Below are positions 50,376 through 58,131 of a stretch of DNA of 64,000 nt, in pieces. The DNA is taken from the NCBI GenBank assembly GCA_011364985.1, contig RDOC01000004.1, positions 32,001-96,000 of the forward strand. Reading direction: 5' to 3'. A program made the translations under genes and the position numbers. The notes beneath the pieces are model-generated. The model was given only the letters and a program-made list of their open reading frames with translations, had not been told where the DNA came from and did no database searches. Every line of letters starts with the position of its first letter. Position 1 is the stretch's first letter. The DNA comes from Candidatus Thorarchaeota archaeon. GTDB lineage: Archaea > Asgardarchaeota > Thorarchaeia > Thorarchaeales > Thorarchaeaceae.

Positions 50376-50735
50376 TCATTCGTCGGTTTGGGAGGACTGA
50401 GACATAGTACTTAGTTCTGAAATTGATGGCAATGTCCCGTCATCATCGACTATCTCCAACTTTCCTGACCGACCAAGTGATAACTGTATTTTTCCTTGCC
50501 ACTCTTTTGCCCAGCCATCACGGATTCTGGCAATCATGCCAGCGGATATATCGGATCCTTCTCCAAACCCCCATAGACTCAAAATGACTGTTCCAGTATC
50601 ATCAGCGACTAGTACCTCGGTCAGTTGTGTCTTGCGACCTCCTCTTGTTTGGACTATGCGAGGTGGAGCAACTGATACAACACGAACGACTACTTCATCG
50701 ACATTTGTACCGGCTTCAATTTCGTTTATTTTCAT
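50376..50735 (-). CDS. ssb: Single-OB-fold ssDNA-binding protein
   Basis: ADDTGTVILSLW, KEWQGKIQLSLGR, acidic tail. Confidence 0.85.
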   Translation of the reverse strand: MKINEIEAGTNVDEVVVRVVSVAPPRIVQTRGGRKTQLTEVLVADDTGTVILSLWGFGEGSDISAGMIARIRDGWAKEWQGKIQLSLGRSGKLEIVDDDGTLPSISELSTMSQSSQTDE

Positions 50736-50839: not shown

Positions 50840-52723
50840 TTATTCTTGCGAATCGGATTTCGTTTCCTTGGCTTTTCGATCAAGTATCGCGTCCAGTTCT
50901 GTAATTGTGTCAGTATCCAAGTCACGTGGTCTATTATCAGCTTCCTCGGATCCATTTTCCCGGGAATCATCTTCGTGTTCTCCGAGGGCCAAGGTAAGCT
51001 CCCGCTTGGTTTCTTCATCTATGCTGCTTGTAGTATCAGGCTCATCTTCAAGCGGGAGCACTTCCTCGCTTGAAAAGGCCTCTAGAGCGGTACCTATGTC
51101 CTCTTTCGATACTTCCTCAATTGCCGCCGATACTAAGTCGTCAGCTTCGAGTGCCTCCGCTATTAAATCCAAGGCCATTTTTGTACCATTTTCATTGGGA
51201 ATAGATGGCATTTCTGGTCGAGAAATCTCGGTTGTACCTGCGCTGAATTCTCCGTCTTTGATTTCAGATTCTTCCTGACCTTCCATGATTTCCGCCTCTT
51301 CATCATTCCCCGATTCTGCAGGACCAACTGCAATTACAGCCGCTTCTGCTTCTTCTTCCGCTGAGTCTATTATGGATTTCTCGCCTGTTTTCTGAGATCC
51401 ACCAAAGTCAATTTCCACTGATGAAACATACTGAAAGGCGTCTTTGTCTCTTTCAGAAGCAACCTTAAGCTGAAATTCTGGTGCCTCATCGATGGCTATG
51501 GCCAAATGACTTTCCTCACCTGTAACTGGTGCTTCCTCAGGTTTGGAAGGAGGCTTTTTGATGGTCCCTAGAGATTCGATGGAATCTAGCGCTTCAGCGA
51601 AATCAGAATCGGAAAAGACATCTTCAATCTCTTCCACCACTTCTTCAACAATCTCATACTCATCTGAATCTTCAATGATATGGCCATTTTCGTCAACGAA
51701 AACCTCTTCAACGACCTCAATGGTTTCGAATTCTGAACTTACTTCCTCTTCCGCTTCTAGTTGTCGTACACGGGCATCAACTTCGGCAATGGCTTCCTCG
51801 GCTGCTTCGTCGGCAAATCGAAGGAGCTGCTTCGCAGGGAGATCAGGAAGAGTAACACCAACATAGTGAGCAGCAGCGTCCATGAGAATTCTCAACATCT
51901 CGTCACGTCTGCTCTTGTCAATAGCCACCATGCTGTATGTTGGAACACCCAAGATCTTCTGGACAACTTCTGGTTTCATGACGTTGGGCTTGTCCTGTTT
52001 GTTCGCAATGGCAAAGACAGGAACCTTTGGCGCATCACGACGAATAAGTTTCAAGATATCCTTGCTGATGATTACATTCCGTAGTGATGAATCGCAGACC
52101 AAGAAGATGACGTCTGCACCATGGAAGTAGAAGCGCCAGAGCTTTCGAAATCGTTCCTGACCAGCAAAGTCCCAGAGCACAAGGGAGTAGTTGCCAAACT
52201 TGATGTTTTCAACGGTTTCAAGATTCAGTGCAATTGTTGGCACGTATTGGGTAGGGGGCGTGTCACCAAGTAGCAGGTGAAGTGTAGTTGTTTTACCAAC
52301 CCCGCCCTCTCCAACAAGTGCAATCTTTAATTTCGTTGTGACTGATGACTCGATAATTGCAGCAAAACTGTCAATTGCTGCCTTGAGACCCTCCCCTGAG
52401 ATGTATTTCCTCAATGCAGCAGCTCCATTCCTCAATCTGTCCGTAGTAGAACGCTCATCTTCTCGGGTGTCGGTGACAAATACCAGGAGTAGATCCCCAA
52501 CCACATCAGCTGCCAGAAACTTATCATCCTCAAGAATCAGTGGAAGCTCCTGGAATTCATCTCCCGAAGCCGACTTGATTTCTTCCCTCGTTGACAGAAA
52601 CTCCTGTAATTTGCTGTCTTCAGTTTCTATGGGCCAGTATTTGGTTTTCGCAATAATGGCACCGGTCGAAGGTCGCACGAGGTATGTGTTTATGATCATG
52701 GGATTCTCACCAGCCATTATCAA
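50840..52723 (-). CDS. Longin-like domain plus Arf-like small GTPase plus long acidic tail
   Basis: GEGGVGKTT, PTIALN, WDFAGQERFRKLW, NKQD; N-terminal 125-aa alpha/beta domain; E/D-rich C-terminal half. Confidence 0.85.
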   Translation of the reverse strand: MIMAGENPMIINTYLVRPSTGAIIAKTKYWPIETEDSKLQEFLSTREEIKSASGDEFQELPLILEDDKFLAADVVGDLLLVFVTDTREDERSTTDRLRNGAAALRKYISGEGLKAAIDSFAAIIESSVTTKLKIALVGEGGVGKTTTLHLLLGDTPPTQYVPTIALNLETVENIKFGNYSLVLWDFAGQERFRKLWRFYFHGADVIFLVCDSSLRNVIISKDILKLIRRDAPKVPVFAIANKQDKPNVMKPEVVQKILGVPTYSMVAIDKSRRDEMLRILMDAAAHYVGVTLPDLPAKQLLRFADEAAEEAIAEVDARVRQLEAEEEVSSEFETIEVVEEVFVDENGHIIEDSDEYEIVEEVVEEIEDVFSDSDFAEALDSIESLGTIKKPPSKPEEAPVTGEESHLAIAIDEAPEFQLKVASERDKDAFQYVSSVEIDFGGSQKTGEKSIIDSAEEEAEAAVIAVGPAESGNDEEAEIMEGQEESEIKDGEFSAGTTEISRPEMPSIPNENGTKMALDLIAEALEADDLVSAAIEEVSKEDIGTALEAFSSEEVLPLEDEPDTTSSIDEETKRELTLALGEHEDDSRENGSEEADNRPRDLDTDTITELDAILDRKAKETKSDSQE

Positions 52724-52837: not shown

Positions 52838-53144
52838 TTCGGATAGAGATTTTCAGCCAAGAAATGAGGGGGGACGCAGAGTTCCGCCAGAGCAGCACTC
52901 CGCATCCGTCGTGCCTTCAAGCCGAACGCACAACAGAATTCAGTTATGTGCAAGTCTCGTTTGCAAGGGGATTCATCCCCTCGGAAGCAAAGCTCCGAGA
53001 GTCCAATGCTAGAACTCGTGAATAGGGACCGTGTGTTGCGAATTCGAGTTCTTATGACGGGGAATTGCACGTTCAGCCTATGCTGAAGGCATTCGTTCAA
53101 AGGAAAGACAGCATAAGAAGATTTCTGGTCCCCGATATTCCGAA
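52838..53144 (+). ncRNA. Candidate ~300-nt structured RNA (copy A of a shared motif)
   Basis: Nested stems ttcgga/tccgaa, gtgccttca/tgaaggcat, gtgcaa/ttgcac, tctcgtt/gacgggg enclosing three hairpins; TTATA box at about 52810. Confidence 0.55.
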
Positions 53145-53255
53145 AAGACGTTTCATAGAGTGCAAGGCTAGTCCAAAAAAGACTCTAATGTTTCTTGTCT
53201 TGTGAAAAGGAGAGGGGTCGAACCATTTGGCCTAGCCTTGCGAAAGAAAGCAAGG

Positions 53256-54410
53256 CTACCTCGGGAAATTGTCCCTGAGTAATCTGAGATGATGGTGGAC
53301 CATCTCCATGGCCCTCGGGTCATCAGGATCCTTTTCCAAGTCTGTCACAAGGGTCTGAAGGAAGTATTCTGGGAAGAAGAGCCGTACTCTGATATCATTA
53401 AGCAGGAACAGCCATTTATCGTATTCGCCAGAGGGCCCCTTTCGTCTTCTTTCTGATACTACTCTGAACTTCTTCAAGTTCTGAATGGCCTCCTTAAGCT
53501 CCTTTGGCGGAATTCCAAGAGTCGCCTCCAACTCTGAGATGTTTACAGGGCGCCTTCTTAACTCACTGAGTACATCATAGCTGTCTGGGTCTGCAAGAAT
53601 CTGAGCCACTGAAACGGTGTCCTCAGGCGTTTTCTGCCATTCTGTGAGAAATTCAAGGACTTCAGATTTATATTCGGCAGCAAGTTCGGGGTCAAGTATG
53701 GAGCTGGCAGCTTCCATTGCGAGCAGAGGAGGCGCACGAAATACCTCAATGTCCTTGATCATAAAGATGCAGGTTCGGCCAATCTCATCGACCCATTCCG
53801 CTTTCACGAGTCCAAGTTCTTCGAATGGGGAGAGAATGGAATCCACGCTCACACTAGGAAGACCGGTTACCATCTTGAGCCACTCCTCCAAATCCTCTTT
53901 CGAGATTCCACCCTTCCAGAGTTTCGGAAAGACTGCACGGGAAATTTCGTCAGAGAATAATCGTGCCAATCTTGACTCATCCGTCATTCCAGCTAGACGG
54001 ATGATTCTTCGGTATGTATTATCAAGTTCCGTTTGAAACTCGGCATCTGTCATTGAAACAACAGCATTGGTCAATGGGGAAACGATAGAAGTAATGGCAG
54101 CCTCATAGGTCTTGGGATCTTCCGACGGTGTAAGCAATAAAGAAACGCAATATTGCTCTTCCTCTCTGACGATTCCAGTGTAATAAGAGGCCACATTGTA
54201 CTCCTCACCCCCAATTCTAACGCTCAGCGATGAGAATCCAGCAGTGGCATCACCCATGGCATGAGAGGTGAAGATACGCATAATCTCCGTGTTAAGATCT
54301 TCCCTGTAGTAATCTGCAAAATCGGATGGAACCTTTGCTTTTAACACAGCACCGATCTTACTATCCCAGTCAATTAGGAGCATCGCGACAGGCATTTTCC
54401 TTCTCTCCAA
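53256..54410 (-). CDS. Longin/uDENN-like domain plus tandem winged-helix protein
   Basis: N-terminal LLIDWDSKIGAVLKAKVP; two wHTH-like segments ending FEELGLV and LKKFRVV. Confidence 0.75.
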   Translation of the reverse strand: MERRKMPVAMLLIDWDSKIGAVLKAKVPSDFADYYREDLNTEIMRIFTSHAMGDATAGFSSLSVRIGGEEYNVASYYTGIVREEEQYCVSLLLTPSEDPKTYEAAITSIVSPLTNAVVSMTDAEFQTELDNTYRRIIRLAGMTDESRLARLFSDEISRAVFPKLWKGGISKEDLEEWLKMVTGLPSVSVDSILSPFEELGLVKAEWVDEIGRTCIFMIKDIEVFRAPPLLAMEAASSILDPELAAEYKSEVLEFLTEWQKTPEDTVSVAQILADPDSYDVLSELRRRPVNISELEATLGIPPKELKEAIQNLKKFRVVSERRRKGPSGEYDKWLFLLNDIRVRLFFPEYFLQTLVTDLEKDPDDPRAMEMVHHHLRLLRDNFPR

Positions 54411-54512
54411 TCCCTACTTGAGGCAGCCCTGTTTCATTAGGTTTCGCGCTGTCGTACTAAAAAACCTTGTCACTAGGGGATTCGCACAATAATGAAAAGG
54501 GCATTTAACACA

Positions 54513-55175
54513 TCAGTTCTTACCTCTTTCGAGGTGTTTTTCATTGCCAATATACCTTATGATTTGTTGTAACACATCAAAGTAGACAACCTCAAGGTCT
54601 CTTGAAGCATCCACTAGGACAAGATTTCCAGTATCACGTTCAACCATCTCAAGATACGCCTGCCGAACACGCAAAAGACGATCGTACTGCTCGAACTGCT
54701 GGTTCAGGTCCTCCTCTCTTCCGCCAATCCGCCTTAGTCCAATTTCAACTGAAACGTCCAGGATGAAGACCATATCAGGTTCGGGCGCATGAATCTCCTC
54801 TCGATTTCGCTTCAGAATATCTTCCCATGGAATACCGGTACTAGTGGTCTGATAGGCTCCTGTCGCAAAGAAGTATCTGTCCATTATGACGACCTTGCCT
54901 TCGGCCAGAGCTGGAGATATTCGGTTCTTGGCATTCCATTCCCTGTCTTTGATGAAGAGAGTCAGTTCCTCGTCCGGAGTCAACTCGCCTTTTGGTGACC
55001 TTAATCTAATCTCTTGACCCCATTTGCTTTCGCTTGTTGGTTCTCTAAGGTGGATCACATGCACACCTTCTTTTCGCAGGGCTTCTACAACCATGAGGCA
55101 AACCGTAGTCTTCCCCGAACCATCAATGCCCTCTACTACAAAAAGATAACCAGTTCTACCTAGGTCGAAATTCAA
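54513..55175 (-). CDS. tmk: Thymidylate kinase
   Basis: EGIDGSGKTT, REP, MDRY, AYQ, PD. Confidence 0.95.
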   Translation of the reverse strand: MNFDLGRTGYLFVVEGIDGSGKTTVCLMVVEALRKEGVHVIHLREPTSESKWGQEIRLRSPKGELTPDEELTLFIKDREWNAKNRISPALAEGKVVIMDRYFFATGAYQTTSTGIPWEDILKRNREEIHAPEPDMVFILDVSVEIGLRRIGGREEDLNQQFEQYDRLLRVRQAYLEMVERDTGNLVLVDASRDLEVVYFDVLQQIIRYIGNEKHLERGKN

Positions 55176-55345
55176 CTACATTTGACTCCTGCATTATTGA
55201 GCAGCTAGTTTCGAATCTATGAATGTAATAGGTTCATCGGTAATACGGTAATACCGGGATACTGACAATTCCTGTCCATACAATACTTATTAGTCTCTGT
55301 AGAGAAGATAGATTGAGGACCCAGGGGATCTATTGTCTATGTGAG

Positions 55346-55521
55346 ACTGGGGCACGTGAAGTGGAAAATCGGTTGGGCATCCCTCCCATGTAACCAACTG
55401 CGATAGCGACTTGCGTCCAACCGCGTTCGTTCTTAAGATCCCCTTAAGCGGGGGATGGTCCCCTTGCAGAGTTCTTATGCCCTCGATCCACAAGTCACGT
55501 GTCATCCTCTTATCGCCCAGT
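55346..55521 (-). ncRNA. Candidate structured RNA (copy B of a shared motif)
   Basis: actggg/cccagt, cacgtga/tcacgtg, gtgg/ccac, gggcat/atgccc enclosing TGCAA-GGGGaccatCCCC and two more hairpins; strand not certain. Confidence 0.5.
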
Positions 55522-55562
55522 GCGCTTTACACCTTACAATCCAATGAGATTCGGACAATCAG

Positions 55563-55598
55563 TTTTATATAGGAGATAGGATAGGATAACCTATCCTA
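55563..55598 (+). promoter_or_regulatory. TATA box plus perfect palindromic operator, DtxR-box-like
   Basis: TTTTATAT at 55563-55570; taggatagg-ataa-cctatccta at 55577-55598. Confidence 0.6.
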
Positions 55599-55609
55599 CG
55601 GTGTTGTGG

Positions 55610-56113
55610 ATGAGAACATATCTTTGCATAACCTTGATGCTTGCCATTATTCTTCAATGCGTTTCGGCAGTGTCCACAGTGGCAGTGACCCAAAATGATG
55701 GGTCTTACTTCTTGTCCAGCAACAACTTGACCTTGAAGGTAGACTTTGGCAATGGAACAGTTCTCAGCTTTCAGAATCTGAATGGAAGTGATGTCTATAA
55801 TGTCACGAATTCTGCTACAGATGTTGAGGTTGAGTGGTATGGGGATTTGGTCTTTGTTACATCCATTGCTGGGGTATCTAATGATCCTGATGCAGGCCTA
55901 TGGTGGCAATACTGGGTCAATGATGAACTTGGATCAGTAGCTGCAAATAAGTATCAAGTGAATAATGGAGACCTCATCGAATGGAAGCGTCTAGATCCCG
56001 GAACCACATCCATTGCTCCAAGTAATGGATTGATCGAAGGGATAGTAATTGTAGGAGCGTTTGGAATTGCTTTCTTGCTAATTCTGATGATACTAAACAG
56101 GAGAAGACAATAA
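55610..56113 (+). CDS. DUF4430 (transcobalamin C-terminal-like) membrane-anchored protein
   Basis: FVTSIAGV, WWQYWVN, AANKYQVNNGDLIEW; signal peptide and C-terminal TM. Confidence 0.8.
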   Translation: MRTYLCITLMLAIILQCVSAVSTVAVTQNDGSYFLSSNNLTLKVDFGNGTVLSFQNLNGSDVYNVTNSATDVEVEWYGDLVFVTSIAGVSNDPDAGLWWQYWVNDELGSVAANKYQVNNGDLIEWKRLDPGTTSIAPSNGLIEGIVIVGAFGIAFLLILMILNRRRQ

Positions 56114-56860
56114 TTGAAATGCAGAAAAATACTCACCATATTCCTCTTACTACAGATCATGGCGCTATCTGTGGCTGTGGCATCTACGAACTACTATGAA
56201 GCTCTATCTCCCACATTAACAGAGCGAACAAGATTGTCATGGAGTGTGCTTGAAAGCCCCTCTGTTGCAGTTGAGTGGGGATGGAGTGGAGAAGGTTCTT
56301 GGATTATAGGTGAAGGAGAAGAAGTCTCATTTCTCGTTCAGAGGATTCATGATGATGTGGAAGGACAGCTGACTCTTGGCAATTTCTCGATACTGGCGAA
56401 TAATACGGACATTGCAAGAGAACTCGTCTTTGGAATCTGGGGTCTACCACCCTTCTTTCCTGGCCTAGTTGTAGAAACTGGCCAGAGTAGCATGAACAAA
56501 TTAAATGAAACAGCATACGCTTCAGCAGAGAGAGTATCCGGAAATTACCTCAATGGAACCATGGAGTCATCATATAACCAAGTTATAATTGGTGAAACGA
56601 CATACAATTGTATCATATTCAATTATGAGCAAGACCCAACTGGTTTTAGTGAACCCCAAATCACGGAGCTTGCTTATGACCTAGACACCGGAGTCTTGGT
56701 CAGAGCTAATACAAGCTATTCCTTTGGAACACCATACATATTGACCTTGGAACTTGCGTCGATAGCTAAAGAACCATCTCAGTTTACAATCCTACTATTG
56801 GCAGGAATATCGGGAATCATTGCCCTAGTTGTTGTGATGATTCTTCTCAAGCGGAGATAA
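56114..56860 (+). CDS. Secreted, C-terminally anchored hypothetical protein
   Basis: Signal peptide, beta-rich body (YDLDTGVLV), TM plus KRR. Confidence 0.7.
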   Translation: MKCRKILTIFLLLQIMALSVAVASTNYYEALSPTLTERTRLSWSVLESPSVAVEWGWSGEGSWIIGEGEEVSFLVQRIHDDVEGQLTLGNFSILANNTDIARELVFGIWGLPPFFPGLVVETGQSSMNKLNETAYASAERVSGNYLNGTMESSYNQVIIGETTYNCIIFNYEQDPTGFSEPQITELAYDLDTGVLVRANTSYSFGTPYILTLELASIAKEPSQFTILLLAGISGIIALVVVMILLKRR

Positions 56861-56874
56861 ACGGGGGAATAAGA

Positions 56875-57462
56875 ATGAACGATTCAAGTGCAAGGAAGAA
56901 GATTAGTCCAAGTCGATGGATTTCCATTGCATCAATGATGACTGCCCTTGCACTTGTAGGGAATTATGCGTTTGTGGCAATTCCAAATGTAGAGCTCGGA
57001 TCAACAATACTGCTCATAACGTCGTATATTTTTGGGTTCAAGATGGGAATTTGGGTCACCCTAATAATGGCAGCGATTTTTGGCTCAATCAATCCTTGGG
57101 GAACTCTTATTCCTCAGATATGGATTACCCAAGTCATTGGTTGGATCTATATCGCTCTCTCCGGGGGAATCATGAGCAGGAATCTTGATACAAGGTTGAC
57201 AGATCGATGGAGTCCATTCGAGTTTGGAGTTGTGGGTCTCATTGCTACTCTCTTTTTTGACCTTATAACAAACATAGGATACTCCTGGGCGTTTTCTGTA
57301 CCTTTTTGGATAGCACTTGTTTTGGGGTTGCCATTCTTACTGATACATGTCACTTCGAATATGATTCTCTTTGCAGCTGCAATACCTAGGATTAGTTCGA
57401 TTATCGGAAAGCAGTTTGCTCCATATATCTGGCAAACAGACGAACTACTGAGCGAAGAGTAA
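56875..57462 (+). CDS. ECF transporter S component (CbrT-like)
   Basis: AxxxAL first helix, IPNVE, about 5-6 TM, HVTSN near the C-terminus. Confidence 0.78.
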   Translation: MNDSSARKKISPSRWISIASMMTALALVGNYAFVAIPNVELGSTILLITSYIFGFKMGIWVTLIMAAIFGSINPWGTLIPQIWITQVIGWIYIALSGGIMSRNLDTRLTDRWSPFEFGVVGLIATLFFDLITNIGYSWAFSVPFWIALVLGLPFLLIHVTSNMILFAAAIPRISSIIGKQFAPYIWQTDELLSEE

Positions 57463-57489: not shown

Positions 57490-58131
57490 GTGTGTTCCGG
57501 ATTGTCATGGAAAGAAGAGATTGTGCATCTTGCAGAACCAGCTGATGGTCGTGTAGCACCAGCGTTTAAACCACATCACGCTGCTGTTGCCTTAGTCATG
57601 ATTGGCCGCGAGCAACCTCTAGGACGATATGACCTTTGTGCGGCGATGTCTATCGGAGAAGGCAGTGCGCGAACTCTTCTAAAACGACTTGGAGAAGCTG
57701 GTTTGATCACTGCTGAAGGCAGACAAGGCCAAAGATTGACACATGCCGGGCAAGCCCTGTTTGATGCAATCTCAAAAGATATCCCAAGAGGTTTCTTCCT
57801 CGACCTCCGAAAAGCCGTAACTCATGAATCAGCATTTGCCAATCTGGTGAAAGGACGAGCTGACAGGGTAAAGGATGGGATTAGACAACGCGACGAAGCC
57901 ATCATTCAGGGAGGCTATGGAATGGCAGGTGCTACCACTCTGATTATCAAGAATGGGGCATTGTTAATGCCTCCGGATGATTTCCACATGCTCCGAGAAT
58001 ATCAAGAGGAAGCCCTTCTATTAATGGGTAGTCTGAGACCCGAGGAAAAGGACGTGATTGTCATTGGTTCTGCAGATGATGAGCGGCTTGCGAGAGAGGT
58101 TTCGATGGCGGCAGTTCTAACACTCTTTTGA
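57490..58131 (+). CDS. DUF4443-type winged-helix protein
   Basis: GRYDL...GEGSARTLLKRL wHTH; QRDEAI...GATTL C-terminal domain. Confidence 0.75.
   Translation: MCSGLSWKEEIVHLAEPADGRVAPAFKPHHAAVALVMIGREQPLGRYDLCAAMSIGEGSARTLLKRLGEAGLITAEGRQGQRLTHAGQALFDAISKDIPRGFFLDLRKAVTHESAFANLVKGRADRVKDGIRQRDEAIIQGGYGMAGATTLIIKNGALLMPPDDFHMLREYQEEALLLMGSLRPEEKDVIVIGSADDERLAREVSMAAVLTLF

Follow-up and report, generated by a model that had tools for sequence, protein, structure and literature searches.

Two conserved, structured non-coding RNA genes of Thorarchaeota and a eukaryote-like neighbouring gene that they may regulate

Within a 64,000-nucleotide stretch of a Candidatus Thorarchaeota genome (assembly GCA_011364985.1, contig RDOC01000004.1, positions 32,001 to 96,000; hereafter the window, in whose numbering coordinates are given), two elements, RNA A and RNA B, lie on either side of a gene for a protein with longin-like and winged-helix domains and of tmk. 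Judged against the libraries searched, both are conserved, structured and previously undescribed non-coding RNA (ncRNA) genes of Thorarchaeota, and we consider it very probable that they are genuine ncRNA genes. They may regulate the neighbouring eukaryote-like gene, since an exposed C-rich motif matches a conserved site near its start. An earlier reading of the window, made from its sequence alone (the sequence-only reading), had described an unannotated motif that it could match to no RNA family and suggested a new ncRNA family with two related inverted elements. This proposal is borne out by many homologues, covarying helices, separate promoters, a shared motif of 12-14 nt and the absence of an Rfam match: searches of Rfam 15 with the 50-58 kb part of the window (E up to 10) and with the loci of 12 relatives (E up to 1) returned nothing credible on A or B, and ARAGORN called no tRNA or tmRNA within the window. 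The literature, which was covered incompletely, yielded no account of any lineage-specific structured RNA of Thorarchaeota. The two genes are laid out as follows.

52860..53090, minus strand: RNA A, about 230 nt (about 190-260 nt in relatives), ends predicted
53112..53128, minus strand: promoter of A, a transcription factor B recognition element (BRE) with TATA box, consensus CYAGAAAGSTTCWTATG
53066..53090, minus strand: 5' arm of the closing helix P1 of A, partner 52911-52933
53055..53063, minus strand: motif 1 of A, C-rich CCCCGUC, with CCCCGU invariant in alignment A1
53011..53052, minus strand: helix P2 of A (AGAACUCG/CGAGUUCU), with the loop GGUCCC at 53030-53025
52962..53010, minus strand: variable hairpins of A, holding the second GGUCCC-type motif
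52972-52962, minus strand: this second motif, drifted to AUCCCCUUGCA, the reverse complement of the shared motif of the sequence-only reading
52946..52955, minus strand: motif CUUGCGCAU of A (CUUGCACAU in the window), nearly invariant, followed by a U-rich stretch
52872..52907, minus strand: 3' terminal hairpin P4 of A, beginning GGAUGCGG
55281..55293, plus strand: promoter of B, with a TATA-like box at 55285-55292
55315..55525, plus strand: RNA B, about 200-240 nt, ends predicted; leader, long interrupted rod P1, C-rich tract (55380-55390), inner helix CUGCGA/UUGCAG, two hairpins, CGUU repeats
55315..55329, plus strand: 5' leader of B, GAGGAC..AGGGGAU, complementary to B's own 55457-55476
55457..55476, plus strand: motif GGUCCCCUUGCAGAGUU of B, nearly invariant and common to A

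Conserved BRE-TATA boxes and an asymmetry of G-U pairs place A on the minus strand, from about 53090 to 52860, and B on the plus strand, from about 55315 to 55525, and the two genes therefore diverge. The BRE-TATA element of A stands 45-85 nt before the core in 58 loci, with several positions invariant in 57-58 of the 58; this genome arranges its tRNA and RNase P promoters in the same way, and 39 of these loci have a TG about 22 nt further on. For B, a TATA-like box is found at a matching distance in all subtypes. G-U pairs make up 92 of 647 pairs in P1 of A when it is read on the minus strand, compared with 16 of 565 on the plus strand, and 38 of 298 pairs in the leader duplex of B on the plus strand, compared with 6 of 249 on the minus strand; the rod of B alone does not settle the strand. 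Both genes are predicted to be transcribed; contigs from three metatranscriptome sets did not cover them, an outcome that weighs neither for nor against this. In assigning A to the plus and B to the minus strand, the sequence-only reading had the relative orientation right, but both absolute strands were reversed, and A and B do not converge across the longin-winged-helix gene and tmk as it had described. The TATA-like boxes that it placed upstream of them are, from their position and conservation, better read as promoters that serve the GTPase and DUF4430 genes. Its boundaries also shift: A reaches about 50 nt further, via the conserved 3' hairpin, to about 52860, and B has a 5' leader from about 55315.

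The region of A folds better than shuffled sequence (z -2.4), as does that of B (z -2.3). From 5' to 3', A consists of the 5' arm of P1, CCCCGUC, P2, a second and sometimes a third GGUCCC motif, the variable hairpins, CUUGCGCAU, the U-rich stretch, the 3' arm of P1 and the terminal hairpin. Because indels cause RNAalifold to miss P1 on MAFFT alignments of A, this helix was assessed by comparing arms of the same genome with arms combined across species: own-genome duplexes reached -25.0 kcal/mol, as against -14.1 for cross-species and -11.7 kcal/mol for shuffled arms. The 7-bp helix of P2 is retained in 37 sequences. Between motif 1 and the P2 loop, CCGU and ACGG could form a 4-bp pseudoknot, which is unproven because no two-sided change occurs (the loop partner reads ACGG in 51, AUGG in 4 and UUGG in 3 of 58 sequences). 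Two or three GGUCCC motifs are displayed by A in loops and linkers, and genus g2, in which A is divergent, has retained them as well; for the UCCC motifs, the predicted unpaired probability is 0.85 (P2 loop) and 0.74, compared with 0.41 overall. The distances between invariant anchors of A change in all three frames, so that the short open reading frames (ORFs) over A are not conserved.

In B, which holds one GGUCCC, 9 of 24 pairs show two-sided change; none of 500 shuffles scored as high and all slid controls were lower, in a test that is inflated by relatedness. The leader of B (GAGGAC..AGGGGAC) complements the invariant motif of B in all three subtypes. Across 19 sequences the leader duplex scores -20.8, compared with -11.0 (standard deviation 3.2) for shuffled leaders, a comparison in which choosing the best GGGA site per sequence favours the observed value. 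As the leader lies outside the rod and its partner inside, this pairing would be a pseudoknot or an alternative fold, by which the leader can, on the predicted complementarity, mask the GGUCCC seed of B. The four-way-junction topology that the sequence-only reading had ascribed to both elements did not hold, since its GGGGA/UCCCC hairpin is restricted, for A, to the genus of the window and, for B, to the window itself and L044, its nearest relative. The hairpin corresponds to a variable hairpin of genus g1, of which only the UCCCCUUGCA half is old, and both it and the 11-mer of that reading are lineage-specific.

Conservation was followed through 80 loci of relatives, retrieved through the longin-winged-helix gene between the elements. 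Of these, 66 contain A, always between the longin-winged-helix gene upstream and the Arf-like GTPase gene downstream, and 24 contain B, where tmk and the DUF4430 gene meet; in genera g2 and g12, more divergent forms of A were recognised by eye. When genomes of the family were searched with a covariance model of A, 28 of 31 gave a single syntenic copy; a model of B matched 27 of 85, one of these being a weak chance match (26 accepted). B is found in genera g1, g6, g7, g8, g9 and g15, while nine other genera that were searched lack it. On a quick protein tree with an unreliable root this pattern takes at least four gains or losses, and because of these changes it suggests that B is an old element that was lost repeatedly. 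The sequence-only reading had expected an Asgard-wide family, but A and B were found in one Thorarchaeota family only: strict filters recovered no homologue in 118 genomes of other Asgard families, in searches for which model R1 offers only 7 base pairs, and no homologue of A appeared in five other-family Asgard genomes scored more deeply or in the intergenic gaps next to 16 longin orthologues of other Asgard families.

The same distribution bears on the suggestion of a self-cleaving ribozyme or a structured dispersed or mobile repeat. The multi-helix folds with possible pseudoknots, and the patchy occurrence of B with its changes on the tree, could fit such an element. It is nonetheless very improbable: no ribozyme family matches, each element occurs as one syntenic copy per genome at a fixed position, and further copies of the shared 13-mer sit inside coding sequence (all 18 additional matches inspected, which also disposes of a third RNA carrying it). 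Neither a dispersed repeat, nor a ribozyme or riboswitch, as the sequence-only reading had offered, is thus supported, the latter two having neither positive evidence nor an Rfam riboswitch or ribozyme match. A weak match of the A model antisense to ssb (50407-50530, plus strand, E 0.003) is not conserved in relatives and was taken as chance. In one relative (L111:1829-1990, genome G023), unrelated sequence interrupts the 5' side of B, possibly an insertion that removed leader and promoter.

The relationship between A and B rests on a common core, GGUCCCCUUGCA, and on a shared order along the transcribed strands, namely the closing helix P1, a C-rich tract, AACU..GC, GGUCC and GAGUU. In genera g4 and g6, A contains 12-14 nt that match B exactly; for four A sequences this match exceeds the 99th percentile of shuffles. 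In genus g2, where A is divergent, it carries the CCCCUCC tract of B. The motif TGCAAGGGGA..CATCCCC, which the sequence-only reading had reported from both elements, does occur at 52962 (plus strand) and 55468 (minus strand; given there as 55467), the sole two matches in the 1.7-Mb genome. Its second shared motif, CATAAGAACTC, was also correctly located on the minus strand in both regions (53056 and 55479, with no third match in the genome), but this orientation is opposite to that of the other shared motif, and the conserved portion is limited to the 7-nt helix arm AGAACUC/GAGUUCU. A and B are not interchangeable copies, as neither covariance model finds the other element. We regard common ancestry as plausible and slightly more likely than not. 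The absence of reciprocal matches between the models speaks against it, as does a likeness that amounts to one 12-14-mer plus layout, and for these reasons convergence on one common partner is a possible alternative.

The neighbouring gene and the site that the GGUCCC motifs could recognise, in its 5' untranslated region (UTR), are the following.

53256..54395, minus strand: gene for the longin-like and winged-helix protein, 379 aa
54405..54414, minus strand: candidate target in the 5' UTR of this gene, GGGAUU directly before the GGAG Shine-Dalgarno (SD) sequence, with the AUG at 54395

In 67 of 76 loci, GGGAC abuts the 5' side of GGAG, about 17-20 nt before the AUG of the longin-winged-helix gene; it is the best-kept 5-mer of this UTR (29 of 33 diverse loci) and better kept than the SD sequence itself. 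Most relatives carry GGGACC or GGGACU at the candidate site, and the GGGAUU of the window still pairs with the loop of A through G-U, over 11 contiguous bp. In one lineage, where the site is mostly GGGACU, A has the variant AGUCCC, a single event. GGGAC as a general start-region signal was rejected: it is depleted in start regions (6 seen, 12.8 expected), and pattern matches away from the longin-winged-helix gene vary between genomes. Complementarity to the 5' end of tRNA-Pro was also rejected, since the tRNA-Pro of this genome does not start with GGGACC. The encoded protein is 84-96% identical across the family, compared with about 60% for tmk and about 70% for the N-terminal part of the GTPase, and 109 of 151 Asgard genomes contain homologues of it, frequently several each. 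It gives weak helix-turn-helix matches, and its model (predicted local distance difference test score 88.5) has an N-terminal longin-like domain and winged helices; Foldseek relates the model to GATOR1/SEA at E ~1e-3 and template modelling scores of 0.2-0.26, a weak likeness.

Since three adjacent transcription units have GGGACC/GGTCCC a short way past their start, and since the neighbouring gene encodes a winged-helix domain, these words could also be DNA operator half-sites, for instance for that winged-helix protein, with the folds being secondary. This is highly improbable, because the words have no palindromic or phased spacing and sit in predicted RNA loops, and the long helices covary with a strand-specific G-U bias.

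We hypothesise, as the best reading though a tentative one, that A and B are regulatory small RNAs (sRNAs) with C-rich seeds that work in a manner analogous to RoxS/RsaE. According to this hypothetical scenario, (i) A and B would be independently transcribed, related small RNAs; (ii) the long closing helix would keep the multiloop open and thereby display the unpaired C-rich seeds, GGUCCC two to three times in A and once in B; (iii) the seeds would pair in trans with GGGAC(C/U) directly 5' of the SD sequence of the longin-winged-helix gene and (iv) probably also with other G-rich partners; (v) this pairing would set the translation of the gene, most likely by blocking 30S loading; and (vi) B would be an accessory relative that many lineages have lost, and its own 5' leader could mask its seed through a pseudoknot or an alternative fold, so that B would act only conditionally or its leader would titrate A. 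We infer the pairing in the cell, the direction of its effect and the role of B. In a more elaborate version, A would repress the GATOR1/NPRL2-like longin-winged-helix gene via GGUCCC:GGGACC, and the G-rich leader of B would switch between its own seed and that of A, forming an sRNA/anti-sRNA circuit on a eukaryotic-signature GTPase module; such a two-RNA module appears distinctly unlikely.

Several observations weigh against the seed-pairing proposal. The flanks of A and of its own UTR site do not covary (p 0.49 by species, 0.17 by lineage, with three sites mis-anchored), and the candidate seed is only 6-9 bp long. In genus g4 (L093, L101) both GGUCCC motifs are kept where the UTR of the longin-winged-helix gene has no site; this mRNA therefore cannot be the sole constraint on A. 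For CCCCGUC, CUUGCGCAU and the CGUU repeats of B, no partner was identified. In a rival reading, A and B would be protein scaffolds or sponges similar to CsrB/RsmZ, in which the GGUCCC loops and other invariant single-stranded motifs bind a Thorarchaeota protein and the GGGACC of the UTR is incidental or a later addition. The variation from two to three motifs in loops and linkers, their invariance even where the UTR site is lost, the several invariant motifs without an RNA partner and the U-rich stretch after CUUGCGCAU are all consistent with a scaffold. However, a scaffold leaves unexplained both the conserved exact complement beside the SD sequence of the neighbouring gene and the conserved leader of B, which pairs with the same motif, and no candidate protein was identified. 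We therefore consider it unlikely, though a credible competitor of seed pairing.

Another pairing partner that has to be weighed is the ribosome. A could be a ribosome-assembly chaperone or a 30S-binding RNA that uses its C-rich motif 1 to pair with 16S helix 28, on the 5' strand of this helix and next to the central pseudoknot, for which U3 in eukaryotes provides a loose precedent as an RNA that pairs next to this pseudoknot. Both of the Thorarchaeota 16S genes that were tested contain, at about position 917, a full 11-bp complement of UUCCCCCGUCA with G-U allowed, against a genome background of 0.0012 per kb, and A occurs almost throughout the family, as a housekeeping RNA would. The match was, however, picked post hoc among eight motifs; its conservation is limited to a 7-nt core, for which one 16S offers five sites, the pairing would place the invariant U in a G-U pair, and the motif of genus g2 breaks it. 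Moreover, the other motifs have no conserved rRNA site, no box C/D or H/ACA elements occur among the conserved columns of A and B, and A is confined to one family, all of which makes a ribosomal role improbable. As separate observations, a Thorarchaeota 16S gene (L136:1500-3090) contains short insertions near canonical positions 908, 1343, 1385 and 1498, one of which fits a bulge-helix-bulge-like fold by eye, and the 16S gene of L135, also with several short insertions, spans 2411 nt.

For B, the gene downstream suggests yet another role. The remaining genes around the two RNAs are these.

54513..55175, minus strand: tmk, thymidylate kinase (PF02223, E 1e-41), back to back with B
50840..52723, minus strand: Arf-like GTPase gene, downstream of A; inserted genes separate the two in several relatives
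55601..56113, plus strand: DUF4430 gene, downstream of B, with its own TATA at 55564-55571 and a palindrome

In the window B stands directly upstream of the DUF4430 gene on the same strand and has two alternative folds; it could thus be a non-canonical riboswitch or attenuator for the DUF4430/energy-coupling factor (ECF)-type genes, which are putatively involved in cobalamin uptake, with the leader pairing as the switch. Against such a cis function, the DUF4430 gene keeps its own promoter TATA and its palindrome whether or not a lineage has B, and five relatives (L048, L103, L080, L082, L216) have a different gene after B. In addition, the switching element would be at the 5' end, far from any start codon, and no Rfam riboswitch matches, so that we regard the riboswitch as quite improbable.

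The DUF4430 gene forms a run (55601-57462) with a 248-aa membrane-anchored ORF and a 195-aa ECF-S-like membrane protein, putative cobalamin uptake genes of which DUF4430 alone has a family match. The palindrome TAGGAT..ATCCTA (55577-55598), just after the DUF4430 TATA, is kept in nearly all loci of the family with or without B and is likely the operator of a repressor. The same run ends with a winged-helix DUF4443 gene (57490-58131), a candidate regulator. In part of genus g1 (L047, L055, L058, L061, L119), the promoters of B and of DUF4430 carry a near-identical word, AATGTTTATT. The tmk promoter (55225-55262, minus strand) has a conserved ACCGAAGCATCTAATAC-type word in most relatives, which is degenerate in the window and overlaps short tandem GTAATAC repeats. 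Right after the stop of the longin-winged-helix gene, at 53162-53241, a 16-bp inverted repeat with a 48-nt spacer may be a terminator; DNA searches did not find it in relatives. Elsewhere in the genome, a selenocysteine tRNA was called at G000:C11:352835-352925.

In summary, A is kept as tightly as a housekeeping RNA within a block of eukaryotic-signature genes, the longin-winged-helix protein and the Arf-like GTPase. If the proposed mechanism holds, the pair would provide a concrete, testable first case of RNA-level control of eukaryotic-signature genes in Asgard archaea, and the conserved self-masking leader of B would represent an unusual small-RNA design, with a significance limited by the range of one family.

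Compared with known systems, A and B resemble the archaeal RNase P RNA (RF00373) and the signal recognition particle (SRP) RNA (RF01857) in being single-copy, conserved and structured, and predicted to be transcribed independently from the same promoter layout. They are not diverged versions of these RNAs, whose true copies exist elsewhere in the genome (G000:C11:401185 and G000:C15:211334) and whose models do not match A or B. With cobalamin riboswitches, B shares a position upstream of DUF4430/ECF-type genes in many genomes, but it has no Rfam match and is not tied to these genes, which have their own promoter. The likeness to U3 and other processing small nucleolar RNAs consists of one A motif that complements 16S helix 28, the difference being the lack of C/D or H/ACA boxes. 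By eye, GCAUUGGUCCCCUUGC resembles the 5' side of the internal stem-loop of U6/U6atac; this likeness was not upheld, and a U6/U4-like identity was rejected, with no ACAGAGA box, no 3' side of the stem-loop and an AGC-like triplet missing in many members. Protein-sponge RNAs such as CsrB/RsmZ repeat a short motif in loops and linkers in variable number, with many copies of GGA; the motif of A is likewise repeated and variable in number, but it is GGUCCC, in two or three copies, and no cognate protein is known. The closest functional parallel is with RoxS/RsaE of Firmicutes, stand-alone small RNAs with several unpaired C-rich motifs that are able to pair with G-rich sites near the ribosome-binding site, as would be the case for A and B; in RoxS, four C-rich regions act on G-rich targets (PMC5419742). 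Membership of the RsaE/RoxS family proper was rejected, as neither A nor B has an Rfam match to it. In contrast to RoxS/RsaE, to which they have no sequence or covariance-model similarity, A and B have an archaeal promoter, a long closing helix with a multiloop, the seed GGUCCC, a single candidate target that is encoded next door, and a second RNA with a self-masking leader.

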